Notes: generated by a model from the letters alone, not told the origin. 64,000 nucleotides of DNA from an uncultured virus (IMG/VR IMGVR_UViG_3300009001_000010) (IMGVR_UViG_3300009001_000010:1-64000); one strand, 5' to 3'; counted from the stretch's first letter, positions 25,963 through 56,292 are shown. Program-made: numbers and translations.

Positions 25963-25964
25963 AA

Positions 25965-26198
25965 TTAATCTTCCACTTTAATATTTAAATCAGACATTTT
26001 TAAAGGTCGACCAGAGTCGCCATGAAAAGAATAAAAAGTAATTCCTTTAACATGGTTTTTTAATTTATCAAAACTATCAATTACAATATTTTTTGTTTCA
26101 TAACCATCAGGAATATATTTAGTAGCATAAGTATTTATGCCACAAAGAGATCTTTGCCGATAGTATTTTGGATTTTTATAAGAAGCAATAATACGCAT
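25965..26198 (-). CDS. Hypothetical protein
   Basis: 77-aa ORF with AAGGAA SD, directly upstream of dnaE-C. Confidence 0.5.
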   Translation of the reverse strand: MRIIASYKNPKYYRQRSLCGINTYATKYIPDGYETKNIVIDSFDKLKNHVKGITFYSFHGDSGRPLKMSDLNIKVED

Positions 26199-26212
26199 AA
26201 TATTCCTTTATT

Positions 26213-26254
26213 AAAAATAAAAAAAGGGCAGCTTGAATAAACAAGCCACCCTTT
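26213..26254 (-). terminator. Rho-independent terminator after the fibre gene
   Basis: Minus strand GGGTGGCTTG-TTTATT-CAAGCTGCCC followed by a T7 tract. Confidence 0.75.
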
Positions 26255-26298
26255 AAAAACAAGAAATTACTTTATTTGTTAAAGTGTATTAGTTTTGA

Positions 26299-29622: not shown

Positions 29623-29644
29623 ATTTTTAATCTCCTGTTTTTAA

Positions 29645-33496: not shown

Positions 33497-33509
33497 CTAT
33501 GTTCTCCTA

Positions 33510-33875
33510 TTAATCGTCTATTGAATATCTTGCAAGTAGAACAGGAGTATCATCTGGACTAGCTTTTTTTAAACCTACATCCCAAACAAACTCGAAGGTA
33601 CTAGAGCTTGTAATTCTGTAATCGCCTAAAGAGTCAGGAGTTTCTTGAGGAGAAAGTACCAAGCCATCTAAAGTAATGATTATGCTGTTTCTTTTAGCGG
33701 GAAATGGTAGCGTAAATAAAAACTTGCCATCAGGATAATCAACATCGTCATGTTCAGGAATCTGATCAGTAAGATCAAAAGTTCTAACAGTATGTTCTTG
33801 ATTATAAATATTAACAGTATTTACTGTTATTGTAGAATTATCTACTGCGACTAATTTTGGATAAACTGGATCCAT
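33510..33875 (-). CDS. Small beta-rich putative virion/fibre-associated protein
   Basis: FTL...IIITLDGLVLSP....DYRI pattern common in phage structural proteins; GGAG SD. Confidence 0.5.
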   Translation of the reverse strand: MDPVYPKLVAVDNSTITVNTVNIYNQEHTVRTFDLTDQIPEHDDVDYPDGKFLFTLPFPAKRNSIIITLDGLVLSPQETPDSLGDYRITSSSTFEFVWDVGLKKASPDDTPVLLARYSIDD

Positions 33876-33884
33876 ATTTATCTC

Positions 33885-34256
33885 CTAAGCAGGTGTGTAA
33901 AAAATAGTGACGTCTGTTTGATCATTTATCAATGCTGTATATTCGCCAAGAATATATAACTTATTAAATTCACTATCTATATAAAAACCATCACCTAGCA
34001 TAGATTCAAGTCTTGGAATAATGTCACCATTAATAAATAACATTACAAATTTTTCAAAACCTTCCTTTATATAAGGGAAGATTTCATAAAATGAATCATT
34101 TTGATCAAATGAAGAAAAAGCTAAAGCTTTTTGTAAAGGCAAATTGTCTACAATATTTCCAACAGTAGTAGTTTTATCAACATTCAAAGTATCAATTGTA
34201 ATGTTGCTATCAGAAATAACTGTAACGGGTGTTCTTGTTTGAGCATGAGTCGCCAT
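33885..34256 (-). CDS. Small beta-rich putative virion/fibre-associated protein
   Basis: LFINGD...DVTIFY pattern, similar layout to next gene; GAGG SD. Confidence 0.45.
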   Translation of the reverse strand: MATHAQTRTPVTVISDSNITIDTLNVDKTTTVGNIVDNLPLQKALAFSSFDQNDSFYEIFPYIKEGFEKFVMLFINGDIIPRLESMLGDGFYIDSEFNKLYILGEYTALINDQTDVTIFYTPA

Positions 34257-34320
34257 ATAAACCTCGCCTTTTTGTTTAGTTTTAATATATTTTTGCTATT
34301 ATTTTCAAGAGTATAGAAAA

Positions 34321-34638
34321 TTATATATTATCTTTTGTAGAAAAAATATCTATTTCTTTAGTAAATAATAAATCAATTGGGAGCATTTGATTATTAGAAG
34401 ACATAAATTTATGGTCTTCTGTACAATCAACATAATCTCCATTTTCTAAAGTGTATCTGTAAACAGTTTTAATACCTTTATCGTGCCATTGAGTGACTTG
34501 TTGAGCAACCCAAGGGGTAGCTTGAGTTGAATCATTACTAAGTACAAAACCAGAATATTGAGCTTTAACAATATCTTCAATAGTTCTAGATCTTTTTGTA
34601 AGAGTAGGAATTAATATTTCGGTATTTCCTGCTAAACA
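34321..34638 (-). other. Split intein N-fragment (IntN, 105 aa)
   Basis: Cys1 CLAGNTEIL, QWHDKG, block B CTEDHKFM, QMLPID, then stop. Confidence 0.95.
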
Positions 34639-35937
34639 ATAATCAGCAAAACCTAAAATATCTTTCCAAAGATCTTTAGCATAGTCAGATAACAAGCCAC
34701 CTACTTTTACAGAATTTTCTATAAATTTTTCTTCATATTTTTCAAGAACGGAAAGTTTTTTCTTACCCATAGCTCGTCGAACATCATCTGCTTCTTGTTG
34801 AGTAAAACCTGCTAAATCGGTAAATAATTTCATAATTTGTTCCTGATATATTAAAGTCCAATAAGAAGCTTTTAGAATTTCAGCAACTTGAAGAGGTAAA
34901 TCTTCAGGCGGAGAATTATTTAATTTATTAGCAATATAAGTTTTATCAAGACCAGCTTGCAAAGGGCCAGGGCGGTTGATAGCACTGATAGCACTAAGAT
35001 CTTCTATGCTAGCGGGTTGTATGTCATTAATTAATCGTTTAGCGGTACCGGATGTTTCCATTTGAAAAATACCAGTTAAACAACCTAAATTTAAATATTT
35101 ATAAGCTAACTCGTCGCCATCTGGTATAGAATAAGGCTCTAAATCTATGTTGTAATTTTGTTTAATTAAATTTTTACATTCTTTGATAATAGATAAAGTG
35201 TCAATACCTAAAAAATCAAACTTAATAAGCCCAAGCTCTTCACATTCATCTTTATCATATTGAGTAATTCTTTCTGCTTTACTATTAGACCAAACAGGAA
35301 CAGTATCATGTATTTCTTTATCTGAAATAATGACACCAGCTGCATGGATGCCAAAATTAGCAACCATGTTTTCTATTCTATCAGCAAATTCTAAAAAAGC
35401 AGAATATCTTTGATCATCAGAGAGGTCGGGATTTTCTTCAAGAACTTCTTCTAAAGTAGGTTCTTTGCCATACTTAGGAGGAGGAAACATTTTTAATAAC
35501 TCGTTAAGTTCAGAAGAATCACCTTCGTGTATTCTATAAAAAGAACGAGCTAATGATTTTGGTTTAAAAGTTCCATGAGTTATAATATTGGCAACTCTCT
35601 CACGCCCCCAATAATCAATGCACCATTGTATTGCTTTCTCTCTATCTAAAGCATCATGGTCTATATCAATATCGGGAGGCGCACCCCCAATAGTATCTGA
35701 TCTCATTTTATTAAAATCAAACACATCGGTAAGTCCAGTAATATAAAGTAAAATACTATTATATGGATTTTCTAAAAAAGAATGTTTAGACTGTAAACAA
35801 GATTCAATTCTGTCTAAATCTTCTAAAGAAATCATAGCAACTTCTTGATGGAGAAAATCTGGATCTACTTTTTGATAACGATCTTCAATAATATAAGAAT
35901 CTATTTCTTTTAAAAAAGTTTCTCGAGATTTAAACAT
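34321..35937 (-). CDS. dnaE: DNA polymerase III alpha (DnaE) middle fragment (palm/fingers) ending in split intein IntN
   Basis: PPDIDID, HAAGVII, GLIKFDFLG, GIFQME, RPGP, YQEQIM, RRAMGKKK, then FADY/CLAG intein start. Confidence 0.95.
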   Translation of the reverse strand: MFKSRETFLKEIDSYIIEDRYQKVDPDFLHQEVAMISLEDLDRIESCLQSKHSFLENPYNSILLYITGLTDVFDFNKMRSDTIGGAPPDIDIDHDALDREKAIQWCIDYWGRERVANIITHGTFKPKSLARSFYRIHEGDSSELNELLKMFPPPKYGKEPTLEEVLEENPDLSDDQRYSAFLEFADRIENMVANFGIHAAGVIISDKEIHDTVPVWSNSKAERITQYDKDECEELGLIKFDFLGIDTLSIIKECKNLIKQNYNIDLEPYSIPDGDELAYKYLNLGCLTGIFQMETSGTAKRLINDIQPASIEDLSAISAINRPGPLQAGLDKTYIANKLNNSPPEDLPLQVAEILKASYWTLIYQEQIMKLFTDLAGFTQQEADDVRRAMGKKKLSVLEKYEEKFIENSVKVGGLLSDYAKDLWKDILGFADYCLAGNTEILIPTLTKRSRTIEDIVKAQYSGFVLSNDSTQATPWVAQQVTQWHDKGIKTVYRYTLENGDYVDCTEDHKFMSSNNQMLPIDLLFTKEIDIFSTKDNI

Positions 35938-36000
35938 GTTAAACTTTCAAATAATAAAAAGATGGAAATTACCTAAAGTAAGAAACTGCAAAGGTGGTTG

Positions 36001-36345
36001 TTAAACCACCCAAGATTTGTTTAAATAATATTCAGGATTTTCTATAGATATATTAAATACTTGGGAAAGATTTTGTTTTTCTTGAATAGAAAATAATCTT
36101 TCGTTTAAAGAAAATAAAATTTGTAAAACTTTTTGAGTTTGACTATTTGCTTCACAAATAATTGTATAGTTAGCAGTCAAGTTATAAAGCAAAGCACTTA
36201 TAATGTAGTTTGTTTCATTACCTACAAAAAATTTTGCACATTTATAATTAGATTCGTCAGTAAAACACTTTTTTAAATTCTTAAATAAAGAACTTGTTGG
36301 ATCTACATTTAAGTTAAAAAGCGAGTTATTTGTATCCATATGCAC
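36001..36345 (-). CDS. Hypothetical protein
   Basis: 114-aa ORF between dnaE fragments. Confidence 0.45.
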   Translation of the reverse strand: MHMDTNNSLFNLNVDPTSSLFKNLKKCFTDESNYKCAKFFVGNETNYIISALLYNLTANYTIICEANSQTQKVLQILFSLNERLFSIQEKQNLSQVFNISIENPEYYLNKSWVV

Positions 36346-36352
36346 CTGCTTG

Positions 36353-36580
36353 TTATCTTACAGATGTCCAATCTGTATAATTTGTAAAATCACATTTCAT
36401 AATTTTAACATCAGTTCTCTGAGTTAATCTTCTGTAAGATCTAGCATCAGATCTAGTAGTGTGTAATGTCCTACCTTTAATAGTTATAGGTGTATTTGTC
36501 GTTTGATCGACAACAGCATAAAGAGTGGTAGCACAAGTATCTATAGGAGTAACTAGATTAGTCATAATTATTTCTTTCAA
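36353..36580 (-). CDS. Hypothetical protein
   Basis: 75-aa ORF between dnaE fragments. Confidence 0.45.
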   Translation of the reverse strand: MKEIIMTNLVTPIDTCATTLYAVVDQTTNTPITIKGRTLHTTRSDARSYRRLTQRTDVKIMKCDFTNYTDWTSVR

Positions 36581-37887
36581 AAAGGTAAAGTAAACTGATC
36601 TGCTTGCTCAGCCATTTGTTTATTAAAAATAAGAGGGGTAGCAGCACGACCCTCATTAAGAAAACGAGAAAACATAAGATCGTATTTAATTGGATCAATT
36701 TCAGTAATGCCTAAAGACCAGGCTACAAGAGAACCAGCAGCAGAACCTCGACCGGGCCCATGCATTACTCCATAATCTCTAGCACCATTCATAAATTGAG
36801 AAACAATTAACATATAATCAGAAAAACCCATACGTTTAATTACATTTAACTCATGATCAAGCCTATCTCGATATTCTTGAGGAGGCATATCATTAAACCT
36901 ATTGTATAAACCGTGTTGAGATTCTAAAGTAAGGAATTCAAAACTTTTATAAGTTTCTGGAAGATCTTGAAACTTAGGATAACGGTTCATTCTATCCATA
37001 AAATAAGTTTCATTATCTATCAAATCAGCTACATGAACTGTATTAGATATGACGTCGTAAGGCATATTTTGTTGGTTAGCTTCATTCCAAGTCCAATCAT
37101 GAGATGCAAAATGAACATCTATTGGTCCGAAACTAAATCTTTTTTCATCAGAAAGTACAGTTTTAGTTTGCATACACAAAGCGGCTTCATGATGTTGTTT
37201 ATCATGTTCATGAGTGTAATGACAATCACATGTAAGTACCATAGGTAAATTATGTTTAGAAGCAATTTCTTGCAAAACTTTATTTACAGCTTGTTGCTCT
37301 TCATCTTTATGGAGTTGAAGTTCCACAAGAAATCTATCTTTAAACATTTCTTTATGATGTAAAATAAGATTTTCTGCGGCTTTTTTCTCACCCATAAGGA
37401 TGAGTTGACTTGCTCTACTACCCAAACAAGTAGTGGTAGCAATAATACCTTCAGAATATTGAGCAATAAGAGCATCATCAATACGTGGTTTACGATACAT
37501 ACCTTCAGTATAAGCATAAGAACTGAGCTTCATGAGGTTATGTAAACCAATATTATTTTGAGCTAACAAAATCAAATGATAATAAGACTTGCCTAAATGG
37601 TCAGGTTCTTTTGCAGTTCTATCATTTATAGTATAATAAGCTTCCATACCGATAATTGGTTTTATATCTTGTTTTTTACATTCTTTATAAAATTTGTAAC
37701 TACCTGATACATTACCATGATCTGTCATCGCTACAGCAGGCATACCCATTTGTTTTGCATAAGCAGGAAGCCTATTAACTTTATTAATTCCATCTAAAAG
37801 ACTATATTCTGTATGTACATGCAAATGCACATAAGGCTTTTCAGACGGATTCTGATGTTGGTTTTGATGATTGCATGTCGTTGCCAT
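36577..37887 (-). CDS. dnaE: DNA polymerase III alpha (DnaE) N-terminal fragment (PHP domain + start of palm)
   Basis: HLHVHTEYSLLDG, TDHGN, GMEAY, HLILLA, CLGS, DCHY, GPGRGSAAGSLVAW.LGIT..DPIKYDL.F.RFLN; stops just before PDIDID. Confidence 0.95.
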   Translation of the reverse strand: MATTCNHQNQHQNPSEKPYVHLHVHTEYSLLDGINKVNRLPAYAKQMGMPAVAMTDHGNVSGSYKFYKECKKQDIKPIIGMEAYYTINDRTAKEPDHLGKSYYHLILLAQNNIGLHNLMKLSSYAYTEGMYRKPRIDDALIAQYSEGIIATTTCLGSRASQLILMGEKKAAENLILHHKEMFKDRFLVELQLHKDEEQQAVNKVLQEIASKHNLPMVLTCDCHYTHEHDKQHHEAALCMQTKTVLSDEKRFSFGPIDVHFASHDWTWNEANQQNMPYDVISNTVHVADLIDNETYFMDRMNRYPKFQDLPETYKSFEFLTLESQHGLYNRFNDMPPQEYRDRLDHELNVIKRMGFSDYMLIVSQFMNGARDYGVMHGPGRGSAAGSLVAWSLGITEIDPIKYDLMFSRFLNEGRAATPLIFNKQMAEQADQFTLPF

Positions 37888-38281
37888 TTAATAAATTGCT
37901 TTCTTTTCCAGTACACACAAGCTTAAAATGTTCAAAGTAATTGGGTTGCTCTTCAATTAAAGCACGTAAACCCATCTTACCACCAGTGCAAAGAGTTTCT
38001 TCTTCACTTGTCGTGGGATTTTGCCACTTTACTGCAGAGCCAGCAAAACGAACAAAACCCATGTCTTTTGCAAGACCAATGACATCCATGATTTTATCAG
38101 TGCCTTTAGCACATTCAAATTCAAATTCAGCTACTTTATTAAGAGCTGGAGCAACTTTGTTCTTAACTATTTTTACTTTCATAGCCAAAGTATTAGGAGA
38201 GTCAGAGCTAGGCTTAGAACTAACCCTGAGCCTAACAGAAGCGTAAAATGGAATAGCATTGCCACCTGAAGTTGTTTCTGG
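37841..38281 (-). CDS. recA: RecA, exon 2
   Basis: Resumes at PETTSGGNAIPFYASVRL...KIVKNKVAP, the canonical continuation of VMYGN. Confidence 0.9.
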   Translation of the reverse strand, partial: PETTSGGNAIPFYASVRLRVSSKPSSDSPNTLAMKVKIVKNKVAPALNKVAEFEFECAKGTDKIMDVIGLAKDMGFVRFAGSAVKWQNPTTSEEETLCTGGKMGLRALIEEQPNYFEHFKLVCTGKESNLLNGNDMQSSKPTSESV

Positions 38282-39222
38282 CACGAAACTCCACAAGTTT
38301 ACCATACTTGTGGCGTGGACTATATCTTCATCTTTCTCTCGAAAGAGCCTTGCGCTTGGGGAACGTACCAATCTCATTCCCTACTCTACTCACTTCCATC
38401 TTTCGATGTGTTTTCGATAGTCTCTACACCTTCCTCTATTAAAGAGGCTTGGCACGGTATTGCCCAATAAATGGAGGGGTTCACCGTTAGCCCGTAATGG
38501 ACACCCACTGGTAGTGGTTCACAAGGTTTTTTTCCTAGAGTCGCCTCTAGGGGAAACCGTAGAAACTGAAGTATAGTTTCTTTAGCAGTGTCAATATTCT
38601 CTTCTAATATAACGCAATAATGATAACCCATAGAAGTTAGCTCTTTGATTTTTCTTTGATCACTCTTCTTTTGTTTTTCGAAAGAGTGAGCCCAAGAGCC
38701 ATGAATATCTATACAATACTTTTGACCAAGATAAAAATCAATAGACCATTGATTAATTCGTTTTTCATAGATATAAGCTAAATCTAATTCATCTAAAATT
38801 TCTTTAAGCTTTTCTTCTAAACGATTCATGGAAACATTTCTTCTAACAGAAACGCCCATGGCTTTTCTTTTGTGGCCAACAGCAGATTCACTACAGCCCC
38901 AAAGATCAGCTAGTTTAACATGGCTAAGATAAGGGTCTTTAAGCATTTGGATAGCTTCAGGAGTATTGGGAATTTTCTTACGATACATACGTTGTCTTTT
39001 TAAACCTAAGGCTTTTAAAAGACGGTAAACTGTTTCGTCACAAAAATTTAAATACTCTTGAAGTTCTGTTAATTTCATTAAATTGTAATTCTTTTGAACA
39101 AATTGAATTTGTTCTTGAGTGATTTCTTTATTAAAAGTGACACCGTTTATAGTAGTTGACATATAACCTCCTGTAAAGTTGGCATATAGTAAACTACACA
39201 AAACAATACTTATTTCAAGTTA
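38282..39222 (-). ncRNA. Group I self-splicing intron (941 nt) in recA
   Basis: Exon ends in U, intron ends in G; IGS GUUUCC pairs exon GGAAAU; P2 hairpin CCUAGAG-GCGA-CUCUAGG; Q AAUACCGUGCC; R GUAGAGACUA; S AAGAUAUAGUCC; P9 hairpin; splicing restores the RecA frame. Confidence 0.92.
38386..39162 (-). CDS. Intron-encoded Vsr/DUF559 (EDxHD-like) homing endonuclease
   Basis: Start MSTTING with AGGAGG SD; HTH-like N-terminus; LEEKLKEIL...YEKRI...IDFY...IDIHGSWAH...SDQRK nuclease motif. Confidence 0.8.
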   Translation of the reverse strand: MSTTINGVTFNKEITQEQIQFVQKNYNLMKLTELQEYLNFCDETVYRLLKALGLKRQRMYRKKIPNTPEAIQMLKDPYLSHVKLADLWGCSESAVGHKRKAMGVSVRRNVSMNRLEEKLKEILDELDLAYIYEKRINQWSIDFYLGQKYCIDIHGSWAHSFEKQKKSDQRKIKELTSMGYHYCVILEENIDTAKETILQFLRFPLEATLGKKPCEPLPVGVHYGLTVNPSIYWAIPCQASLIEEGVETIENTSKDGSE

Positions 39223-39849
39223 ATTTCCGTACATGACACCAATATTCATGCGAACTTGGTTAATAAATAAATATAAACAATCATGATCTACACTAATTTT
39301 GCTAATAGCTCGGAGAGCTTTAGAAAGTAATCTAGGTAAATCACCAACGCCCATCTCATTCATAAGTCGTTTAGTATCTCGTTCTGATTGAGCAGCGTCA
39401 ATAGAGTCAAATACAATAACGCCTACTTTACCAGTCTTGCCAAGATCTTGGCAAAGCTGAAGCGCTTCTTCAGCAGTATCAGGGTAACAGAAAACCATAC
39501 GATCAGGGTCGATTCCCATAGACTTAATAAGATCTAAACCAGTAGTACGCTCTAAATCTACAAATACTGGGACTCTATCGTAACCATAAGTATCTACATA
39601 AGACTTAACGATTTGAAGGCAAAGACTAGTTTTGCCAGCGCTTGGAGGACCAAATATTTCTACAACTCTATCTGAAGGTAAACCTCCGACACCTAAAGCA
39701 GAGTCAAGAGTTACAGAACCTGTAGAAATTGCTTTTACTTTTTCATACTTTGGACCAAGAGAAATAGAATCTTCTTTGCCAAACTTTTTACTAATACTAT
39801 TAGCAATTGCATCAATTTCTGGAATACCTGTAATTTTTTTAATTGCCAT
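39223..39849 (-). CDS. recA: RecA, exon 1
   Basis: ISTGS..LD.ALGVGGLP, EIFGPPSAGKT (Walker A), IVFDSI (Walker B), FINQVRMNIGVMYGN. Confidence 0.95.
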
Positions 39850-45089: not shown

Positions 45090-45653
45090 CTATTGAGAGG
45101 TAAATTTCATTTCTACGGAAAGAGATAATCCAATTTGCTCAAATACTTTTCTAAGTTCAAGTAATGTATCGAATCTTTGTTTCCAAAAAGTCTTTACAAT
45201 TCTTGCTGCTTTTTCTGCAGAAACTGTGTTGGATAAATAACTATCCGCCATTCTTTCAATAACAGTTGCAGCTGGACGCTTTGCTCCCTTGGCTGCAAAA
45301 TTTGAGACAATAATATTTATCAAATCACTTTTTTTAATACTATTGCCACCACCTATAGCATCAACCATAGAAGAGGCAAGAGAATAATAATTTGAAGAAA
45401 TTTGAATATTGTTAGCAAGCTTAGTTAAAAGAGCTCTAAATTTTAAAATATCAAGCTCTTTAACAGTAGGAACTTCAATCATAAGATCAGAAGCCCATTC
45501 ATATAAGGTTTTATCATAAAAGATAAACTCTTTTATAAAGCTTTCAGTAATAGCTGAGTAAGTTTCAGCACCAATTTTAAGCTCATCTACAAGCTCTTGA
45601 GCTTCAATATTTATAAGCTCAATAACTTTTTCTTCATTGGTTTCTGCTGTCAT
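45090..45653 (-). CDS. Hypothetical helical protein
   Basis: ORF track 191 aa; likely start MTAET at the upstream stop. Confidence 0.5.
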   Translation of the reverse strand: MTAETNEEKVIELINIEAQELVDELKIGAETYSAITESFIKEFIFYDKTLYEWASDLMIEVPTVKELDILKFRALLTKLANNIQISSNYYSLASSMVDAIGGGNSIKKSDLINIIVSNFAAKGAKRPAATVIERMADSYLSNTVSAEKAARIVKTFWKQRFDTLLELRKVFEQIGLSLSVEMKFTSQ

Positions 45654-46066
45654 TAAAAGCCCCAAAGAGGTTTACGTTCGCGAGAAGTAACTGCACCGGG
45701 ATCAGATTGTGCTGCAACCTCTCTAGCTGCGCTAACTTTAGCTTTAGAAGGAGCCGAAGATGCAGATGTAGCAGCTAGTGGGTCTGAAGTAGATGCATAA
45801 GAATTTAAAATAGAATCTTTAAGCTCTTTAGAGAAAGCTAAACCATCTTCATTCTTGAATCGAATATCATCAAAATATTTTTCGACTTTTTGACCATCTT
45901 CCATAATAGTACCTTTGTGGCTTGGAACAGATACAAAAAGACCATTAGAACCTTGAATGATTTTAAAGCCGTCAATCTCCATGATATCGTCAATAATAAC
46001 AGAAGCAATACCTTTAAGCTTTGATGCTGAATTAATTTTTCTTACATTAATCGTATATGAAAACAT
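45653..46066 (-). CDS. spoVG: SpoVG-family nucleic-acid-binding protein
   Basis: KLKGIASVIIDD...KIIQGSNGLFVSVPS.K....FDDI. Confidence 0.8.
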   Translation of the reverse strand: MFSYTINVRKINSASKLKGIASVIIDDIMEIDGFKIIQGSNGLFVSVPSHKGTIMEDGQKVEKYFDDIRFKNEDGLAFSKELKDSILNSYASTSDPLAATSASSAPSKAKVSAAREVAAQSDPGAVTSRERKPLWGF

Positions 46067-46344
46067 TATTTATCCTTAATAATTTCAACATTATTTTTTA
46101 CTAAAAATAATTTATAATAATAGCCAACTAAAAAATATATAGAGAGTAATTGTTTTAAAGTTAAATCATCGACTTTATCAAAATTTGCAAAATAAGAATT
46201 TAATTCTTTTACAAAAGCATCAATAACTTCTTGATCTTTTTGTTCTAAATTTTCGTTTACATGCTTTAATAAGTTTAAAGTGAGCTGATTGAGATTTAAA
46301 TTAAAAGAATCACCCTGAGAAGGAGAAACTTTAAATTTAAACAT
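46066..46344 (-). CDS. Hypothetical protein
   Basis: 92-aa ORF in operon. Confidence 0.45.
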   Translation of the reverse strand: MFKFKVSPSQGDSFNLNLNQLTLNLLKHVNENLEQKDQEVIDAFVKELNSYFANFDKVDDLTLKQLLSIYFLVGYYYKLFLVKNNVEIIKDK

Positions 46345-46345
46345 A

Positions 46346-46774
46346 CTACTGCCACCCTAACATTCGAGGAAGAGCAGCAGTAAATAATCTACCAAGAACT
46401 TGAAACTCTCCAGCAGATAAAGAAACAGAAACTCTTTTATCCCCTGAAGAAAGACCCATCATAAAAGTACCAGCATATTTACCTTCGCCAGGTGTAATAG
46501 TAAGCTTTTTGCCAGTACCATCATTATCATGATAAAAACTTCCCCACTTTGGGGAAGAAGGATCATCAAAAAATTGAGTTAAATCATTGATACCAAAAGC
46601 AAATGTAATCTTTTGATTTTTCCAATCATAAGATTTTTCTCCTTGAGAAGGAGCCATCTCTAAAAGCACCGCACCAGTTTTTTGAATTCTATTATTATCG
46701 TCTACTCTAGGAGGCAATAAAGTGAATTGAGCTGCTGCAGATTTTTTATAAATGTTAAATGAAGTTGGATACAT
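46346..46774 (-). CDS. Whirly-like ssDNA-binding protein
   Basis: IYKKSAA, GAVLLEMAP..G...YDW, FYHD, EFQVL...F...LP.MLGW match plant Whirly motifs in order; start MYPTS at 46774 with AAGGAA SD. Confidence 0.7.
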   Translation of the reverse strand: MYPTSFNIYKKSAAAQFTLLPPRVDDNNRIQKTGAVLLEMAPSQGEKSYDWKNQKITFAFGINDLTQFFDDPSSPKWGSFYHDNDGTGKKLTITPGEGKYAGTFMMGLSSGDKRVSVSLSAGEFQVLGRLFTAALPRMLGWQ

Positions 46775-47630
46775 TATTTTCCTTTTCCAAGTTATAATAT
46801 TCGTCGGAAATTGATTCACAAAGATCAGCTAATACAGATCTATATTGTGAAGTTAAAGTTATTTGTGAAGTTGCTGTAGAATCTTTAAATGCATAAGATT
46901 CTAAAAAAATGTGTAAACCAGATTCCTTTTTTCTAAAAGGAGCATCTATTTGACCTAAATCACCAAGGCAAATTAATTTACTTGTAGAAGCAACTCTAGA
47001 AACAATAGTTTTCATTGTATGGATATCTGCATTTTGACATTCATCAAATATAACAACTGAATTTTCTAAAGACATGCCTCTTGCTAATTCTACTGGAAGG
47101 TATTTTAACCTGTTGTTTTCAAGCATTTCGAATATAAAATGCTCAGCATCTCTACCTAAAAGAGAGTTTATATGTACCATATAACTAGACATGATACCAG
47201 ACATTTTATCGTTTACATCACCAGGTAAAATGCCCATAACATTAGATTTACCTCCTACATATATAGAAGGTTTAATTAAAACAATATCTTTGTCATTTTT
47301 AAAATATTCATTTAAAGCGTAAGCTATAGAAAGCAAGGTTTTGCCAGTACCAGCTTTTCCTAAAGCAACAGACATTAAAATATTTTTATCTAATAAGGAA
47401 TCAATAAAAGCTTTTTGTTTAGAGTCTTTTGGTTTGATTCCTTGTAAATCTTTATAAGATAAAAGAGTAAAGTATGGAGATTTATATTTAGCTAAAGCTG
47501 AAGAAGTAGAAGATTTTAAAACTAAATATTCATTTTCATCTGGTTCAAAATCAAAAAAATCAGGTATTTTTAATTTCTTTTCTTTAAAAAATGAATCAAT
47601 ATAATTTTGGTCTATATGCAGATCTCTCAT
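46755..47630 (-). CDS. phoH: PhoH-family ATPase
   Basis: GKAGTGKT, G.LPG...DKM, ARGMSL, DECQN, LGDLGQID. Confidence 0.9.
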   Translation of the reverse strand: MRDLHIDQNYIDSFFKEKKLKIPDFFDFEPDENEYLVLKSSTSSALAKYKSPYFTLLSYKDLQGIKPKDSKQKAFIDSLLDKNILMSVALGKAGTGKTLLSIAYALNEYFKNDKDIVLIKPSIYVGGKSNVMGILPGDVNDKMSGIMSSYMVHINSLLGRDAEHFIFEMLENNRLKYLPVELARGMSLENSVVIFDECQNADIHTMKTIVSRVASTSKLICLGDLGQIDAPFRKKESGLHIFLESYAFKDSTATSQITLTSQYRSVLADLCESISDEYYNLEKENNVSNFI

Positions 47631-48427: not shown

Positions 48428-48733
48428 TTAGTCTTTCTTCAAAGGAAAAAATAAGTAACTATCATTTTCCAAAATTAAAGCACCAGCAGTATTTTTTCTA
48501 AATTTATAATTAGATTCATAATCAGAATTTAGAAAATCATGTAACCAAACTAAAGCTTCTTCTTTAGAAGGAAAAATATCAATAGTTAAAATATAATACC
48601 TTTTGGTATTAAGAAGTACAGGAGTATAATCGGGATAAGCTTCTAGCCAATGAGAATCAGATTCTTTAGCAGCTAAATAAGCTTTTTTTCCTGATTCACC
48701 CCGGCTAATAATATAATCAGGAAGTGCGGGCAT
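48428..48733 (-). CDS. Hypothetical protein
   Basis: 101-aa ORF coupled (TAATG) to the di-Ubl gene. Confidence 0.5.
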   Translation of the reverse strand: MPALPDYIISRGESGKKAYLAAKESDSHWLEAYPDYTPVLLNTKRYYILTIDIFPSKEEALVWLHDFLNSDYESNYKFRKNTAGALILENDSYLFFPLKKD

Positions 48734-49164
48734 TAAATATTGCCCTTAACACTACCTGTAGCAAAAACTTCTGAATTTGGTGCAACAAGAGTTGCTTCCC
48801 ATTGAGTTGCAGGGATGCCTGCACCATTAACAATGATATCTCTACCATGCAAATTCTCTTGGCAAACAAGTTCAGCAAGAGTCATAGTTTGAGAAACATT
48901 TACAACTCTGGCGCCAGGACCAGGGATAACAACTAAAGTAATCGTATCTTGATTACCTTTAACGCTGCCTGTAGCAAATATTTCTGCATTTTGAGAGATA
49001 AGGGTAGTCTCCCACTGTGATGCAGGAATTCCTGTACCATTAATAATAATATCGCGGCCATGCAAATTCTCTTGACAAGCGAGCTGAGCAACAGTCATGT
49101 CGGGAGTAATAGTTACGGTGCGAGCACCAGGGCCAGGAATAACAACAAGTGTAACTGTAGACAT
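48733..49164 (-). CDS. Tandem di-ubiquitin-like (beta-grasp) protein precursor
   Basis: Two ~70-aa repeats (TLVVIPGPGAR...MT..L...ENLHGRDII.NG...IFATGSVKG), each ending KG|N. Confidence 0.8.
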   Translation of the reverse strand: MSTVTLVVIPGPGARTVTITPDMTVAQLACQENLHGRDIIINGTGIPASQWETTLISQNAEIFATGSVKGNQDTITLVVIPGPGARVVNVSQTMTLAELVCQENLHGRDIIVNGAGIPATQWEATLVAPNSEVFATGSVKGNI

Positions 49165-49232
49165 AAATTAAATAAAATCCTAAAATAAGTTAAAATATTT
49201 TTTATTTAATTTTATTTTACTTTAATATATTT

Positions 49233-49520
49233 TTATTTTCCGCGAGTAGGGTTATTACCACGGCCACCACCGCTTGGGCGGCCAGTAGTAGATGGACCAT
49301 TCTTCATATTGCCTTTTACAGAACCAGTAGCAAAAATTTCTGAACCTGAAGCAATTAATGTTGTTGGAAAAGTATTTGGAGCAACACCTGATCCATCAAC
49401 AATAATATCTCTTCCATGAAGATTTTCTTGAATAACAAGTTGTTCTACAGTCATGTCGGGAGTAATAGTTACAGTACGGGCTCCAGGCCCAGGAATAACG
49501 ACTAAAGTAATTGTAGACAT
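49233..49520 (-). CDS. Ubiquitin-like protein with C-terminal extension
   Basis: Same 70-aa domain ending GSVKG, followed by NMKNGPSTTGRPSGGGRGNNPTRGK. Confidence 0.8.
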   Translation of the reverse strand: MSTITLVVIPGPGARTVTITPDMTVEQLVIQENLHGRDIIVDGSGVAPNTFPTTLIASGSEIFATGSVKGNMKNGPSTTGRPSGGGRGNNPTRGK

Positions 49521-49533: not shown

Positions 49534-49728
49534 TTATTTATCAGTTTTTCTTTGGTTTCTAACAGCTTGAATATCGCTGCGTAAAGTTTTACAGCTTGCT
49601 GCTGTTTTAGATAAAGCGACTCTAATACGGCGTCCAGCCGCGTCTTGACCTCTTTCAAATTTATCTGCATCTTCTAAAGCAGAATTAAGAAGTTCAATCA
49701 TATAGGTTAATGTTTCTTTAGCGTCCAT
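49534..49728 (-). CDS. Histone H1-like Hc1-family small protein
   Basis: DADKFERGQDAAGRRIR...CKTLRSDIQ resembles the Hc1 N-terminal domain (GNKAA.R.R). Confidence 0.65.
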   Translation of the reverse strand: MDAKETLTYMIELLNSALEDADKFERGQDAAGRRIRVALSKTAASCKTLRSDIQAVRNQRKTDK

Positions 49729-50456: not shown

Positions 50457-51512
50457 TTACGTTCCTAAGTAACTTAAAAAATCTTTTAAAGTTCTCTTAT
50501 CTGTTAAATTTAAAACAAACATTAAATATTTAGAAAAATCATTTACAGTATGATTGGTTTTTAAAAAATAGTTTTTAAATTCTTTTTTTAAATTAAAAGA
50601 CTTATTAGAATTCAAATAATACTCTACTGAATCTGGGTCAAACATTTTAGATAATAAATGTTTATTATCATTTAAACTAAAGAAAAGCCATAACATTTCT
50701 TGTTCATCTAAATGGCCAGATAAAGTTTCATAATATTCTTCAGCTTTTGTACTATTTGTTTTAATAGTAGAAAGTTTACGTTTTCTTGGAAATAAATCTT
50801 TTATAATGTGTTCGGATACATCTAAATTTATATAAGTATCAGAAGTAGTATGGGAATATTTATCTTCAGTATACCAAGAAGGATAATTAAAACCTGATTT
50901 ATTTAATAAAGAAGATTTAGAGTTTTTGAAAGAATATGTTTTCTTTTTAAATTTAGTTTTTGCTGCTTCTTGAATGTAAGAAAGATCAAAATCACTTGTT
51001 TGAATAAAAGAAACACCTTCATAAATATTTTTTGTAGTTGGATCGTAAACTCTAGAATAAAATTCATTTTGCTTATTAAAAATAAGCATAACTTGCCAAG
51101 TATCTTGTCCTTGATCAAGAGCTGATTGAATAAAAGAATTAAACTGATTTACATCCTGAAGGCTGGGAGAAACGCCCATGTTGTGGTGAGAATGACTCCA
51201 GCAAGTCATACTTTGAATAATACTATTAGTCTCTTCTAAAGAATGATCCTGCATAAGCTCTTTGTAAAAAGAAACCATCATTTGAGAATCAGTGTCAACT
51301 TCAGCAGCAGAACAATATTGCTCAGGAATGTATAACTGGTCTCCTAGGTTCAAATAAATATAATTATCATTAGTTGTGACATTGACAGTATTAAACCATT
51401 GAGCCTCTTGAGGGGCTAAATTAACAATAGTTTTTACAGATTCTAAATATTTTTGATTTATTACTAATTTAATTTCTTTATTAATTAAAGAAAAAGTAGA
51501 TACATTCTTCAT
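50457..51512 (-). CDS. JAB/MPN+ (JAMM) metalloprotease
   Basis: Upstream Glu (QEAQW), IPEQ, WSHSHHNMGVSPSLQD = HxH-x7-S-x2-D. Confidence 0.85.
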   Translation of the reverse strand: MKNVSTFSLINKEIKLVINQKYLESVKTIVNLAPQEAQWFNTVNVTTNDNYIYLNLGDQLYIPEQYCSAAEVDTDSQMMVSFYKELMQDHSLEETNSIIQSMTCWSHSHHNMGVSPSLQDVNQFNSFIQSALDQGQDTWQVMLIFNKQNEFYSRVYDPTTKNIYEGVSFIQTSDFDLSYIQEAAKTKFKKKTYSFKNSKSSLLNKSGFNYPSWYTEDKYSHTTSDTYINLDVSEHIIKDLFPRKRKLSTIKTNSTKAEEYYETLSGHLDEQEMLWLFFSLNDNKHLLSKMFDPDSVEYYLNSNKSFNLKKEFKNYFLKTNHTVNDFSKYLMFVLNLTDKRTLKDFLSYLGT

Positions 51513-51522: not shown

Positions 51523-53745
51523 TTACGTTTCATTCAAAGTGTTATAAGTAGCAAAGGGGACATAATTATTATTGTTTATTTGATCTTCTTGTAAATTATT
51601 TTGTTCTGGTTGGTCTGGAATATCTTGACTTTCTTCTGAATCTTCTTCAGTGAAAGAACTTAAAAAGTTATTGACGTCAGTATCAGTAACAATTTCTTTT
51701 TCAGATTCTAATTTCAAAGATAAAGGTTTTAACTCATTTGAAAAATAAATATAATTAGAACCCCAAGGATCTGCAGAGTTGGCTGATCTAACCCAAGTCA
51801 AAGCAGACAAAAGAATTAACTTTAAATCATTTTGTTGAAATGCATTATAAATTAAAGGAGAAGCTTCTCCAAGACAAGCATTCGACCATTCAAATAAAGT
51901 GTCAATATTAGATGTACCACCAGTATGTGGATGGATATAGTAATACGCATTACTTGAATTATAACCAAACAAAGAAGAATTATAAGCCAATTTAACTTTT
52001 AATCTATTTTGTGTAACCTGAATAAGATAAGGTCCGCCAAAAATTGATTGATTTTTATCTACGACTTTAATTTCTGCAGGGCAGTTTAACAAAAAAGTTA
52101 CTTGTTTAATTTTATAATAATTTTTAGAAACATTTGTATAAAAATCAATTTTATCTTGATCGGATAAATTATCAAAATTTTTAGTAGTTAAATCAAAATT
52201 ATAATTTTGAGAATAATATTCTATTGAATGAATAAAAATATTTTCTTTAGTCAAATTATTTAAAAAATCATTAGTTTCAAAATTTTGATTTTCATAAGAA
52301 AGAGCTAAAGCTGAATTATAATTTGATTTAACTTGATTATATAAAGGATAATTAGAAGATATATAATTGAAAGAATCAGATATAGTTTGAAAATTTTCTA
52401 CAAGAGATTTTTTTTCAATATCAATTCGATCAATTGCTTTTTTTATTTCTTTAGCAAGACTTAAAAGAGAAGCCTTGTTTCTTCGTAAAGAAGATAAATT
52501 TGTTGCTAAATCAATTGATTTAATATTTGATTGATTGTTTTCAATTAAAGTTTTAAATTTATTAAACTTTTGCTCAAGTTTAAAATCTATTTTAGGTTTA
52601 TTTAAAATAGAACTATTAATTTTTTTAGAAAAAGGCTCATATTCAGGATTAGTAATTAAAAGCAAAGTATCAATTAAATGAGAAGGAATTTCTTCCAAAT
52701 GGGTAGAAGAAAAAGCAGCAAGACTTTTGAGTTTTTCAGCTACAAGCTTATTATACTCTTCTATATTAGTAAGTTTTAAACCATCATAATCAAATAATAT
52801 ATTAATTAAATCTTTAAAACGAGCTTTTGGATTTTTTCTATTTTCTACTTCATTTATAAGAGCATTAGAAATAAAAGAAAAAATATAACAATCTTTTTCA
52901 TTTAAAGAAGAATCTAAATATTTCATCTTGAATAATACAGGAATTAAACAAGTTTTTCTTTTAAGGGCTTGATTCTTAGTATAACTAGTAAATTCAATTT
53001 CTTTATCTTTTGACCTAGCAGACCAAGAAGGAACTTTCAAAACCTGAAGTCGGGAAGAATTTATTGAATCTAAATAAGATGTTAAATCAAAATCAAAAGC
53101 AAAATTTAATAAATTTAAAATATCAAATTTTTTATTTTTACTATTAATAGTTCTAGTAAAACTATTGTTTAATTTATATGTTCTAAAAGATGTATTTGAA
53201 ATAATTTCTTCAGTAAAATAATCAGGATTAGCAATGTTTGCAGCATCATAAATATTTTTAGAAAAAACAGAAAAAACAGGTTTGTCATTATAAGATGAAA
53301 TTTGTTTTAAAGAATAATCAAAAATATTTATATCAAAAGTTTGTTCTTGATTATTTTGTTTAAATAAAAAACATTTAATTAAATCTTGTTGAGAATATGT
53401 TTCTGAATTTAAAAGAAATAAATTATTTAATTCATCAGAAATTTCAGAAAAAGCAGTCGAGTCAGACCAACTATTTTCAAAATAATTGATTCCAGAAAGA
53501 AAAGAAGAATATCTGTTAACAAGAGTAAAAAAAGGAATTTTTTTTTCTAGAAACGAAGAGTAAGTAGATTTTAAACTATAAGGAAAATTATATAAAAACC
53601 AATCTTTAGTCTTACGATTATAATAAATATCTTTATTTAAAATTTCAATAGAATTTAAATCTGAATTTAATTTAAAAAGATTGTTAATTTGAGAAAGCGT
53701 TTCAGGAGTGTAATCAGAAGTACAATAGTAATATTTTCTATTCAT
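51523..53745 (-). CDS. Large protein with coiled coil and C-terminal prokaryotic E2-like domain
   Basis: GPYLI...IHPH...NACLG...L..AN..DPWG; HPH...CLG mirrors the E2 HPN...C active site. Confidence 0.65.
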   Translation of the reverse strand: MNRKYYYCTSDYTPETLSQINNLFKLNSDLNSIEILNKDIYYNRKTKDWFLYNFPYSLKSTYSSFLEKKIPFFTLVNRYSSFLSGINYFENSWSDSTAFSEISDELNNLFLLNSETYSQQDLIKCFLFKQNNQEQTFDINIFDYSLKQISSYNDKPVFSVFSKNIYDAANIANPDYFTEEIISNTSFRTYKLNNSFTRTINSKNKKFDILNLLNFAFDFDLTSYLDSINSSRLQVLKVPSWSARSKDKEIEFTSYTKNQALKRKTCLIPVLFKMKYLDSSLNEKDCYIFSFISNALINEVENRKNPKARFKDLINILFDYDGLKLTNIEEYNKLVAEKLKSLAAFSSTHLEEIPSHLIDTLLLITNPEYEPFSKKINSSILNKPKIDFKLEQKFNKFKTLIENNQSNIKSIDLATNLSSLRRNKASLLSLAKEIKKAIDRIDIEKKSLVENFQTISDSFNYISSNYPLYNQVKSNYNSALALSYENQNFETNDFLNNLTKENIFIHSIEYYSQNYNFDLTTKNFDNLSDQDKIDFYTNVSKNYYKIKQVTFLLNCPAEIKVVDKNQSIFGGPYLIQVTQNRLKVKLAYNSSLFGYNSSNAYYYIHPHTGGTSNIDTLFEWSNACLGEASPLIYNAFQQNDLKLILLSALTWVRSANSADPWGSNYIYFSNELKPLSLKLESEKEIVTDTDVNNFLSSFTEEDSEESQDIPDQPEQNNLQEDQINNNNYVPFATYNTLNET

Positions 53746-53959
53746 TTAAATGTTTAATAACCTTATTTAAAGTACGGATAGAATTAATAAAAAAATCATC
53801 ATCAAAAGTTATTTGAAAATCATCTTCTACAATTAATGAATAATAATTACACTCTTCGCAAATTCCAAATGGAGAATTAAAATCAATTGTTTTATATTCT
53901 TCATCAGTAAGTTGTCTCGAAAAAGCACATTCATCAAAAGAAAGACAAATTATTTTCAT
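53738..53959 (-). CDS. Small Zn-ribbon-like protein
   Basis: C....EC ... CEEC. Confidence 0.45.
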   Translation of the reverse strand: MKIICLSFDECAFSRQLTDEEYKTIDFNSPFGICEECNYYSLIVEDDFQITFDDDFFINSIRTLNKVIKHLNE

Positions 53960-54665
53960 CTAAATAACTTTCATGTTTTTGATTAGTAAGTTGATCAATT
54001 ATAGCTAACCACGAATTTAAGGAATCTTCCATCGTAACATCATTGTCGTAATAATCTTTACACAACTTTAAATTTTTAATTTCTTCATCATGAAGTAAAT
54101 TTTCATTAATATACTTTTTAACATAATCTAATATTTCAATAGATTTTAAAGATAAAGAAAATTCATACCTAGTTAAATACTTTTGAACTCTAGAAAGTAT
54201 TTGAGTAATTTTAGAAGCAATTTCTTGTTTGCTTTTTAAACCTTCAAGTTGAAAAGAACGAATATCTAATTCATCTTTAGACCAAGATTTAAAAGTATCT
54301 AATGAAGTATAGATATTATTATTGTGTATAGCTACTGAAGCATTAACGAAATCATGCTTATAAATTAATTCTTCAGGACTAATAAAATATTTTTTAATTA
54401 ATTGACAATTTAAATTTAAAAAAGTATCAGCATTATCAGTAGATATAGGAGTTTCTATTTTAGATAATAGTGTAAAAGCTTTTTTATAATTCTCTTCAGA
54501 TGCAAAATAAAAATCAATATCATGATATTCGCTAGAAGGAGAATAAACTAAATTAATCGCAAAAGAACCAGAAAGTATTGGTTCGCAATCAATTAAACCT
54601 GGAGCAATGGAATTTAACTTTTGTATGTATTTCGATATGACCTTATGATGATAAGGTATAATCAT
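53934..54665 (-). CDS. Pol-beta-superfamily nucleotidyltransferase
   Basis: ILSGSF...HDIDFYF (GS/DxD), QLI...HDF; likely start MIIPY at 54665. Confidence 0.7.
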   Translation of the reverse strand: MIIPYHHKVISKYIQKLNSIAPGLIDCEPILSGSFAINLVYSPSSEYHDIDFYFASEENYKKAFTLLSKIETPISTDNADTFLNLNCQLIKKYFISPEELIYKHDFVNASVAIHNNNIYTSLDTFKSWSKDELDIRSFQLEGLKSKQEIASKITQILSRVQKYLTRYEFSLSLKSIEILDYVKKYINENLLHDEEIKNLKLCKDYYDNDVTMEDSLNSWLAIIDQLTNQKHESYLDENNLSFF

Positions 54666-54669
54666 ATTA

Positions 54670-56292
54670 TTAAGTGTCGAAATTTGTAACAAAGCCTATC
54701 CTTTTCTTAGAAATAGAAATATTTTTATTAAATTTTAAATGAGTTTTTAATTTTATTTCATTTTTATAAGAAGAAGTTAAAATTTCTTTAGCTTTATTTC
54801 TTAAAAGTTTTTCTAGATGTTTTTTCATATCTCTTAAATTATAAGTTTTAGCAAAAAAATCTATAAGTTCTTGCTCTAAAATTAAATCATAAGAGTTCAT
54901 ATTGTATTTAGACAAAGCAGATTTAAATAAAAATTTAGTTAAAATAACTGTTTTTTCTTCAGTAGTATAATCTACAAAATTAATTTGAAGCATACGATCT
55001 AAAAGAGGCGCAGGTATATTAGATTTAAAATTAGATGTACAAATAAATATGCATTTAGATAAATCTATAGGTATTTCTAAAAAACGATCAATAAATTTAT
55101 CATTTTGTTCAGTATCTAAAAGTTCTAAAAGTGCTGCAAAAGGATCACCTTTATCTTTTGAAATTTTATCTATTTCATCTAAAAGTATAACAGGGTTTAA
55201 ACTTTTAAGAGTAGACAAGCCTTGCACTATTCTACCTGGTTTAGAACCTACATAAGTACGTCTATGGCCACGTATTTCTGATTCATCTGAAATCCCACCT
55301 AAAGATATATGTAAAAAATCTCTATCTGTAGATTCGGCTATTTGTTTTGCAATAGATGTTTTACCAGTGCCCGGCGGACCATCAAAAAGAAAAACTGCCC
55401 CATCTAAAGATTTTGTGAGCTCGTAAAGATAAAAGTATTCTAAAATAGATTCTTTGACATCATCTAAACCATAATGTTTTTGGTTTAAATCTTTTTCTAT
55501 TTGAAGTGTTTCTTTGTTAGATTGACGTAAAGTAGACCAAGGCAAATTATCTAACAAATCAATATAATCTAATGTAGTTGAATATTCCGCAGAAGCGGTA
55601 TTTATTTTTTCAAGACGAGTTCTTTCTTTAACATATTTTTCTTGAACATATTCTGGCCAAGATAAAAATCCAGATTCTTCAGAATCAATTACATCATTTT
55701 CGATAGATGAATGATCGTAAAGTAATAAAGTATCAAGTATGGCTTGGTAAATTAAAGTTCTTTTTTTAACTTGGCTTTCGGCTAAAAAGAATTCTAAATC
55801 ATATGATAAAGCAGGAGTAAGATAAGCAAATATTTGATCATAAAGTGACGTATCTTCTATTTCCATCAAAGGAACATTAGCGCGAAGATAATTAAAAGCG
55901 TCATGAACATTTAAAAAAGTTAATATTAAATTAAGTTCTTTAGTTTTTTTGATTTTTTTAAAATCAATAACATCAAATGTAACTAAATCATTAGAACATT
56001 CTTTTACATTAGTTACTTTATTTAAAGAATGAAAAACAATATTTATTTCTTTTTTGCTTTCTACCAATTCTATCAAACTGCAAAGTACAGAAAAATTTAA
56101 ATATTTTTCCTTTGAAGTTATCCTTAAAATAAAAACATCTTTATAAGTATTGGATTTATATTGATACTCGTCTGCTGTCAAAAAAATAAATTGCTTAGGC
56201 AATTTTCTTTTATCAAGATTAATTACATAATCATTTGCAGGATGAGGAATAATATATTCTTCAGATATTTCAAAATAAGGTAAGCTGGACAT
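54670..56292 (-). CDS. Lon-type AAA+ ATPase lacking the Lon protease domain
   Basis: LPW, HYGLDDVKE.ILEY, GPPGTGKTS, SLGG..DESEIRGHRRTYVG..PGRI, LLDEIDK, PLLDRM; ends KKRIGFVTNFDT with no Ser-Lys protease domain. Confidence 0.9.
   Translation of the reverse strand: MSSLPYFEISEEYIIPHPANDYVINLDKRKLPKQFIFLTADEYQYKSNTYKDVFILRITSKEKYLNFSVLCSLIELVESKKEINIVFHSLNKVTNVKECSNDLVTFDVIDFKKIKKTKELNLILTFLNVHDAFNYLRANVPLMEIEDTSLYDQIFAYLTPALSYDLEFFLAESQVKKRTLIYQAILDTLLLYDHSSIENDVIDSEESGFLSWPEYVQEKYVKERTRLEKINTASAEYSTTLDYIDLLDNLPWSTLRQSNKETLQIEKDLNQKHYGLDDVKESILEYFYLYELTKSLDGAVFLFDGPPGTGKTSIAKQIAESTDRDFLHISLGGISDESEIRGHRRTYVGSKPGRIVQGLSTLKSLNPVILLDEIDKISKDKGDPFAALLELLDTEQNDKFIDRFLEIPIDLSKCIFICTSNFKSNIPAPLLDRMLQINFVDYTTEEKTVILTKFLFKSALSKYNMNSYDLILEQELIDFFAKTYNLRDMKKHLEKLLRNKAKEILTSSYKNEIKLKTHLKFNKNISISKKRIGFVTNFDT

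Follow-up and report, generated by a model that had tools for sequence, protein, structure and literature searches.

The Lon architecture places the protease domain on one face of the AAA+ ring. In LonA proteases (TIGR00763; PDB 3m6a, 7p6u), an N-domain, a helical linker, an AAA+ module with GHRRTY and all motor motifs, and a Ser-Lys protease domain are joined in one chain. ClpX, ClpA and ClpC work with ClpP and carry an [LIV]-G-F tripeptide in a flexible segment, which loops out from within their large AAA domain. The ClpP-partner ATPases named in the accessible parts of reviews are all Clp/Hsp100 proteins with such an internal IGF loop (PMC8138137, PMC9035409, PMC8745299). Jumbo phages encode ClpP, ClpS, ClpX/ClpA and BCS1, which have been proposed to act on host proteins; the portion of Iyer et al. 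2021 that is available to us (PMC7824862) names no Lon-type ATPase, JAB or Ubl cassette.

Older comparative surveys of prokaryotic ubiquitin systems exist. Among the better described ones, Bub relies on oxyester chemistry with an E1 Tyr and an E2 Ser and includes BubE/DUF6527, and the Bil E1 has the domain order IAD-AAD-CYS, as far as the available text of 10.1101/2024.11.21.623953 goes. BilA is processed by JAB, according to the accessible part of PMC10557695.

Here we describe a protein of 540 amino acids encoded by an uncultured phage that shares features with each of these systems. It has the N-domain, helical linker, GHRRTY and all motor motifs of LonA; unlike LonA, it has no Ser-Lys protease domain in cis, none was found in trans, its N-region is shortened and it ends in a conserved xGF tail. 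ClpX, ClpA and ClpC are likewise AAA+ unfoldases with [LIV]-G-F in a flexible stretch, whereas the motif is C-terminal in the phage protein and its docking is predicted. An AAA+ ring, a short putative docking motif at the C-terminus and coupling to a Ubl system are shared with PAN/Cdc48 and the 20S proteasome. However, the phage motif is not fixed to the terminus as HbYX is, and no proteasome or HslV gene was found in five complete genomes. By analogy, the protein may be likened to a Clp- or proteasome-type regulatory ATPase on a Lon scaffold, and it is neither a Lon protease nor a member of Clp/Hsp100.

The neighbouring cassette resembles Bil, Bub and PRTRC and fails defining features of each. 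Common to all are Ubls (single and tandem) that end in Gly plus extra residues, a JAB, an E1 and an E2-like protein. Unlike them, the cassette is phage-encoded, its E2-like protein is very long and an unfoldase lies in the cluster. In contrast to Bub, the phage E1 has an invariant C183, the E2-like protein has an invariant Cys and DUF6527 was unmatched among the cluster genes. In contrast to Bil, the phage E1 is a single stand-alone ThiF domain of 236 aa and thus ThiF-sized. The only PRTRC model to respond was TIGR03736, with 24 bits against a cut-off of 145, and the E2-like domain has a weak likeness to Prok-E2_D.

The phage and its genome

The window, that is, the whole 64,000-nucleotide stretch analysed, is the first 64 kb of a virus record of 73,279 bases with 30% GC and an estimated completeness of 45%. 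It belongs to a large tailed phage with genes for DnaE, a primase-helicase, RecA, ribonucleotide reductase, ThyX, PhoH and tail fibres, and its complete relatives measure 150–193 kb. DNA nearly identical to the window is present in soil, estuary and marine runs, with no RNA run listed among them. Promoter-like sites were as frequent as expected by chance (66 seen against 65.6).

DnaE is encoded in three pieces (36577-37887, 34321-35937 and 24703-25962). The latter two have intein-like ends (a weak PF14890 match; '...LVASNC') and two long tail-fibre-type genes lie between them, which suggests a split intein (24703-37887). The RecA gene (37841-39849) is interrupted by an endonuclease-like ORF of 271 aa, which is probably an intron; relatives G007, G008 and G012 have it whole. 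Nucleic-acid-binding genes of SpoVG-like, Whirly-like and Hc1-like types flank the cassette (45653-46819, 49534-49728).

Domain organization of the phage Lon protein

The C-terminus of the protein is KKRIGFVTNFDT (in longer form ...ISISKKRIGFVTNFDT), with the stop codon after residue 540 (Table 1). In a profile search, TIGR00763 matched residues 68-514 (profile positions 133-576 of 795, E 2e-105), and there was no match to Lon_C, the protease domain, in the ORF. The protein is far closer to Lon than to ClpA (E 1.5e-8) and falls outside the Clp/Hsp100 clade. Its AlphaFold model (pLDDT 90, pTM 0.60) consists of a beta-rich N-domain, a helical region and an AAA+ module. The best Foldseek matches are full-length Lons, aligned across the N-domain and the AAA module over ~575–600 columns. 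Tail residues 530-533 have a pLDDT below 50, as expected of a flexible tail. The AAA module is ~40–45% identical to bacterial Lon, and the Lon oligomerisation regions are retained. PF02190 scored above its cut-off in two of the three relatives scanned (P0049, P0053) and below it in the window protein (P0001), and the model predicts that the Lon N-terminal substrate-binding domain is present.

Walker A, Walker B, Y347, T419/N421, R433, R487, G533 and F534 are invariant in a 56-row alignment, and the pore-loop 1 aromatic residue is Tyr or Phe in nine further family members. We take T419-x-N421 to be sensor 1, R433 the arginine finger and R487 sensor 2. Profile, model and motif evidence therefore agree with the preliminary description of an intact Lon AAA+ module with RRTYVG and no protease domain, and translation of the ORF places IGF at 54691-54699, as had been claimed.

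An independent contig from run X8 covers 53924-55683 with a single difference, located outside the Lon gene. Because the contig has no differences inside the gene and agrees across the stop and the tail, an assembly error at the Lon stop is ruled out. A truncation artefact or pseudogene is likewise ruled out by this agreement together with the family-wide conservation of the tail.

At L341:4126-5041 in G002 (also at L025:10393-11308), the Lon gene is broken inside the pore-loop motif, RG/HRRTY, by an element that resembles a group I intron (RF00028, E 6e-10, 45 bits where the gathering score is 50). The element contains a Cys-rich ORF of 246 aa that resembles a homing endonuclease.

Table 1 Features of the Lon gene, the Ubl cassette and the phage clpP gene in window coordinates
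Feature	Position	Strand	Remarks
Protease-less LonA-type AAA+ protein, 540 aa	54670..56292	-	N-domain, helical linker, AAA+ module, xGF tail
Divergent Lon N-terminal (putative substrate-binding) region, residues ~1-200	55693..56292	-	beta-rich domain and helices in model
Walker A GPPGTGKT	55357..55380	-	
Pore loop 1 RRTYVG (Y347)	55246..55263	-	Y invariant in 56-row alignment
Walker B LLDE	55174..55185	-	present in 135/135 members
T419-x-N421, R433, R487	54826..55038	-	invariant in 56/56
KKRIGF tail: basic patch and IGF	54691..54708	-	flexible segment beyond last helix
252-aa ORF	53934..54692	-	no family match; SGS...DID motif
73-aa protein, four Cys	53738..53959	-	
740-aa protein, C-terminal E2-like domain	51523..53745	-	HPH 605-607, invariant C624; tentative
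JAB/JAMM-type peptidase by motif	50457..51512	-	E36, H107, H109, S117, D120 invariant in 12/12
ThiF-family E1, invariant C183	49740..50450	-	single 236-aa ThiF domain
Hc1-like 64-aa protein	49534..49728	-	PF07432
Ubl, GSVKG/N and short C-terminal extension	49233..49520	-	10 homologous repeats
Tandem two-domain Ubl (ThiS-like)	48733..49164	-	each unit ends GSVKG/N; TIGR01683 E 2e-7
Divergent phage ClpP	15311..15958	-	S104, H127 retained; catalytic Asp and D-R sensor replaced; 39 kb from Lon

Conservation of the C-terminal tail

Two protein searches yielded 253 proteins (P0001-P0253), which were filtered into 128 short Lon-like proteins and 96 with the protease motif, 29 others being set aside. 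FastTree analysis of the AAA segment placed 126 of these 128 short proteins in one clade with a support of 100; the other two have no tail and resemble fragments of ordinary Lon. These 126 proteins and nine full-length ones added by inspection, outside the tree, make up a set of 135. The family thus comprises at least 135 protease-less Lon ATPases of 508–657 aa with identities of about 30–40%, and databases name such proteins 'Lon protease'. The protease domain appears from the tree to have been lost once, in the ancestor of the phage clade, giving the family a single origin.

The tail is strongly conserved and under selection. The motif [IVLMF]-G-[F/Y] lies within the last 30 residues of 134 of the 135 full-length members, which answers the earlier concern that IGF might not be conserved. 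It occurs as IGF (91), VGF (24), LGF (12), FGF (3), MGF (2), IGY (1) and VGY (1), so that the Clp-type tripeptide (L/I/V)-G-(F/L) is matched as IGF, VGF or LGF in 127/135 members; IGL was found in none of the 135. In the 96 full Lons, xGF is absent from the final 25 residues, and the background rate is 8 of 302 ORFs from two related genomes. At least two Lys/Arg residues precede the motif in 100/125.

The tail aromatic is terminal in 45 of 134 tails, second from the end in 31 and followed by at least two residues in 58; overall, 0 to 22 residues lie beyond it, six of them in the window protein. This variable length suits a pocket-binding side-chain motif and not a terminal-carboxylate motif such as HbYX. 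The HbYX-type aromatic second from the C-terminus is absent from the window tail and present in 31/134 family tails. The motif lies 38–54 residues past sensor 2, where full Lon has the linker and the first protease strand, and it may descend from the linker LGxx[FY] or from the strand IG[VI].

No full-length relative of the protein was found in GenBank phages, and single-protein IMG/VR scans added none to those already known. Metagenome loci that match the AAA part alone (~35–45% identity) were taken as ordinary Lons. Protease-less Lon-like clusters of the ESM Atlas also occur among giant viruses, and one such locus, L024, has no tail motif. No Lon-ClpP fusion was found among P0001-P0253.

Terminal IGF motifs on other AAA+ proteins

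The preliminary description had cautioned that RIGF tails occur on other AAA+ proteins, and they do so on unrelated phage AAA+ proteins and on a haloarchaeal Cdc48, in genomes with no ClpP match. The pattern K-[KR]-I-G-F-stop has at least 119 loci in IMG/VR. Among the matches listed, 22 ORFs end in this way, and seven of the 22 are ATPases of 355–387 aa unrelated to Lon (L679, L681, L682, L695, L726, L733, L740), which we assume to be BCS1-like. PF00004 matched the six of them that were scanned and phrog_14322 matched four scanned, and two fragments look alike. Among the matches listed, ClpP is encoded in one of the seven records of this KKIGF family and is absent from the only complete one, G053. 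At least five ORFs end in RIGF(x), in at least 120 genome loci; one is a haloarchaeal Cdc48 (L576:2601-4823) ending in RIGFQ, whose own genome, of unstated completeness, has no ClpP match. Because IGF ends on unrelated AAA+ proteins in the absence of a ClpP match, the xGF tail is a trait that recurs among AAA+ proteins and, taken alone, does not point to ClpP. The GFQ end conforms to the HbYX definition in the accessible part of Forouzan et al. (PMC3493965), and phages that have no ClpP may rely on that of their host; the IGF cases in ClpP-less genomes are therefore still compatible with a protease-docking tail.

The Ubl cassette

Lon is followed by the 252-aa ORF, the 73-aa Cys-rich ORF and the 740-aa E2-like ORF. 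The earlier placement of Lon three genes upstream of an E2 gene thus stands as to gene order, whereas the E2 label is weakly supported (neither a Pfam nor a Foldseek match; Z 3.1), and the 740-aa protein is a tentative E2 by its model. Its C-terminal domain has a conserved HPH and Cys and was modelled with a pLDDT of 92. In the VIA comparison, the top four rows are E2s (Z 2.8–3.1, rmsd 4–5, ~100 aligned), and about half of the 50 rows are E2 enzymes by title. Against Prok-E2_D, the ESM Atlas gave a TM of 0.58, under the Atlas bar. The SGS...DID of the 252-aa ORF is presumably a nucleotidyltransferase-like motif, and the four-Cys protein is, from its sequence, a possible zinc finger. The JAB-type peptidase had no library match and none in a PDB profile search. 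TIGR01683 matched the tandem Ubl in two stretches, under the model cut-off. The Gly followed by extra residues at the ends of the phage Ubls parallels the JAB-processed BilA.

The Ubl genes (window 48733-49520, L329-L345) contain one to four tandem units, each ending in GSVKG/N. Some are extended by a conserved 'GPSxTGRPSGGGRGNNP' stretch; in others, a small domain that ends in FGWAxx and is a separate gene in relatives is fused to the Ubl. A lone Ubl in G010 (L287:9998-10213) sits in a different phage context, at a locus with no E1, JAB or E2-like gene. More distant E1+JAB pairs (L346-L406) are common in other phages, and the E1 matches in GenBank include Bacteroides (crAss-like), Flavobacterium and Xanthomonas phages.

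Phage ClpP

The ClpP gene reported earlier at 15311 was confirmed. In every mapped record of the clade, its slot lies between an endonuclease and a RusA-like gene. The ClpP family has more than 100 proteins, is near-core in the clade and has an invariant Ser, His and Cys102, with Ser104 and His127 invariant in 70/70 homologues. T67 (49/70), Y69 (33/70) and T99 (43/70), which we take to be docking-cleft positions, are variable or polar. The D-R-D stretch of ClpP aligns to K-T-S/F in the phage protein (T179 in 67/70). A Ser-His-Asp triad and a D-R oligomerisation sensor are canonical ClpP features in the accessible part of PMC9035409. From the alignment, the phage ClpP appears to have neither the canonical triad Asp nor the D-R sensor, and a substitute acid elsewhere is possible. 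Reading the alignment by eye revealed no obvious change that separates Lon-bearing from Lon-less phages.

A prohead protease role is possible. The gene lies among replication genes, but the five complete genomes yielded neither an S77 nor an S78 protease in a search whose S77 model matched no control either. A complex prediction with three copies of phage ClpP 14-208 and tail 510-540 was uninformative (score 0.02 against a mark of 0.32, run without controls). In record G039, a ClpP of bacterial type (L802:8323-8910) is encoded 6 kb upstream of the Lon gene, and G002 has a second, divergent ClpP (L801:10251-10856).

Co-occurrence of Lon, the cassette and ClpP

The preliminary description had named a separate Lon protease gene as a possible objection. 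PF05362, the Lon protease domain, matched none of 22 related records, three of them complete and Lon-bearing (G002, G022, G041), in a search that matched 13/14 control genomes and covered 13/14 Lon-bearing records, G024 being left out. A split Lon with its protease elsewhere is thus ruled out as far as the records are complete.

Lon is present in 14 records (G000-G005, G011, G020, G022, G024, G025, G039-G041; G022 and G024 are near-copies). The cassette E1 lies within 10 kb downstream of Lon in all 14, several of which were found through the cassette; the fair count is 5/5 for records found through Lon, plus G022 and G024 found through ClpP. Plain synteny of a block that also holds PhoH and ThyX could explain this link. 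Near more distant phage E1+JAB pairs, Lon was found at none of 61 loci, many of them redundant.

Six records (G007, G008, G009, G012, G013, G014) cover the Lon slot and keep the cassette but have no Lon; G006 and G015 stop short of the slot and were excluded from this count. ClpP is encoded in five of the six, of which G007 and G012 are complete. A replacement unfoldase was rejected: PF00004 matched only RecA in G007, G008 and G012, and neither of the two complete genomes, G007 and G012, encodes another AAA+ unfoldase. The genes flanking Lon persist where it is lost. On the E1+JAB tree, two changes are needed for the Lon-less state and the Lon-bearing lineages are scattered through the clade, which suggests that Lon was lost repeatedly (at least twice on this tree, whose backbone is poorly resolved). 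Lon is thus an accessory module, dispensable in some relatives.

A ClpP of any kind is encoded in 10/14 Lon-bearing records, including all three complete ones, and the clade ClpP in 9/14 Lon-bearing and 5/6 Lon-less records and in the complete G029, which has neither Lon nor E1. The ClpP slot lies outside the G003, G004 and G039 records, and G005 is ambiguous. Because ClpP is near-core in the clade, its co-occurrence with Lon says little. In G011, the genes flanking the ClpP slot are three bases apart and ClpP is missing, whereas Lon retains RKVGF; relocation of ClpP elsewhere in the genome is possible, this record being 50% complete. Since Lon-less records have ClpP and G011 has Lon with no ClpP in the slot, neither Lon nor the phage ClpP is tied to the presence of the other. 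An obligate trio of Lon, cassette and ClpP, which the preliminary description had implied, thus fails on the six cassettes without Lon and on the VGF-tailed Lon of the ClpP-empty G011.

Proposed mechanism and alternatives

The phage protein is predicted to be an active ring unfoldase that derives from LonA and no longer has a protease domain. It would assemble as a hexamer, take in substrates through the Lon N-domain and the pore loop, and display its tails on the ring face where Lon bears its protease. By analogy with the ClpX/ClpA loops, the tails would insert into hydrophobic clefts of a ClpP ring. Docking on ClpP is proposed because the tail fits the Clp-ATPase motif (L/I/V)-G-(F/L), as given in the accessible part of PMC8745299, and is flexible, because the motor motifs are invariant and because no protease was found in trans. 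The partner would not be fixed to the phage ClpP, a host-type ClpP being at least as likely as the phage type. We give this reading, an accessory unfoldase docked by its tail on a ClpP ring, somewhat less than an even chance. The earlier tag-unfold-degrade scheme retains host ClpP as a possible partner, and G011 and the Lon-less records weaken phage ClpP as a fixed one.

If docking is real, the odds are about even that the substrates would be conjugates of the neighbouring Ubl cassette, a further and weaker step. The complete pathway, in which E1, E2-like protein and JAB would attach Ubl to proteins of the host or the phage and the tail-docked Lon motor would read this tag and feed a borrowed or phage ClpP, is doubtful, as is a Ubl degradation tag as such, for which gene neighbourhood is the evidence.

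Alternatively, the protein may be a stand-alone Cdc48/p97-like unfoldase or segregase that extracts or remodels Ubl-tagged or other proteins with no protease, the xGF tail being of a general AAA+ kind that binds a cofactor or the ring itself. This would agree with the terminal IGF of two unrelated AAA+ groups in genomes with no ClpP match (among the matches listed), with the tie of Lon to the cassette (14/14; 5/5 via Lon itself) and not to the phage ClpP, and with the view in the accessible part of Gong et al. (PMC11601603) that Ubl conjugation in bacteria probably does not mark proteins for degradation. However, the haloarchaeal GFQ fits HbYX and so may dock a protease too, host ClpP could serve the ClpP-less phages, and no cofactor gene tracks Lon, the flanking genes remaining after Lon loss. 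We regard such a segregase as the main rival reading, if a rather unlikely one.

The conservation of Walker B, the pore-loop aromatic, the arginine finger and sensor 2 makes an inhibitor or decoy improbable, as it would need none of them. Such a protein would fill host ClpP clefts and displace ClpX/ClpA/ClpC, or form mixed rings with host Lon that lower proteolysis, and phage proteins would be protected. Mixed rings would be in keeping with the retained oligomerisation regions and the ~40–45% identity to bacterial Lon over the AAA module, and a decoy with an accessory Lon apparently lost at least twice on the E1+JAB tree.

A strict proteasome-like machine made of phage parts alone, in which Ubl tag, Lon-AAA and phage ClpP are all indispensable, is unsupported and very improbable. 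All three modules do occur in the window and in the complete Lon-bearing G002, G022 and G041, but the complete G007 and G012 have cassette and ClpP without Lon or another AAA+ unfoldase, and G011 has Lon and an empty ClpP slot. Moreover, the phage ClpP has no triad Asp or D-R sensor, its putative cleft positions are variable or polar, and it does not differ obviously between Lon-bearing and Lon-less phages. Docking on another self-compartmentalised host protease (20S proteasome or HslV) in HbYX fashion, for which Cdc48 RIGFQ is a precedent and 31/134 tails have the aromatic second from the end, is hardly to be expected, as 103/134 tails do not fit and the window tail has six residues beyond F.

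Implications

The phage protein is a real and conserved Lon variant with solid anatomy, and its link to ClpP is plausible and predicted. It is apparently undescribed: no description of the family was found in the literature searched, which comprised the main text of mostly freely available papers, and the cassette could already be listed in operon tables of Ubl papers or of older prokaryotic-ubiquitin surveys.

Even if the tail does not dock on ClpP, these proteins form a conserved family, with at least 135 Lon ATPases that have no protease domain. If it does, C-terminal docking of a Lon motor would represent a novel pairing and a clear example of convergence. According to the accessible part of PMC11601603, what Ubl conjugation does in bacteria is a central unanswered question, and degradation is considered unlikely. 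With an unfoldase encoded next to Ubl, E1, JAB and E2-like genes, the phage cassette makes the question of Ubl function directly testable. Should the full scheme hold, a Lon-ClpP hybrid protease would act with a beta-grasp Ubl as a degradation tag in bacteria, the C-terminal IGF tails of other AAA+ families would be a broader and so far unrecognised route to ClpP, and phages would have rebuilt the logic of the ubiquitin-proteasome system out of bacterial parts.
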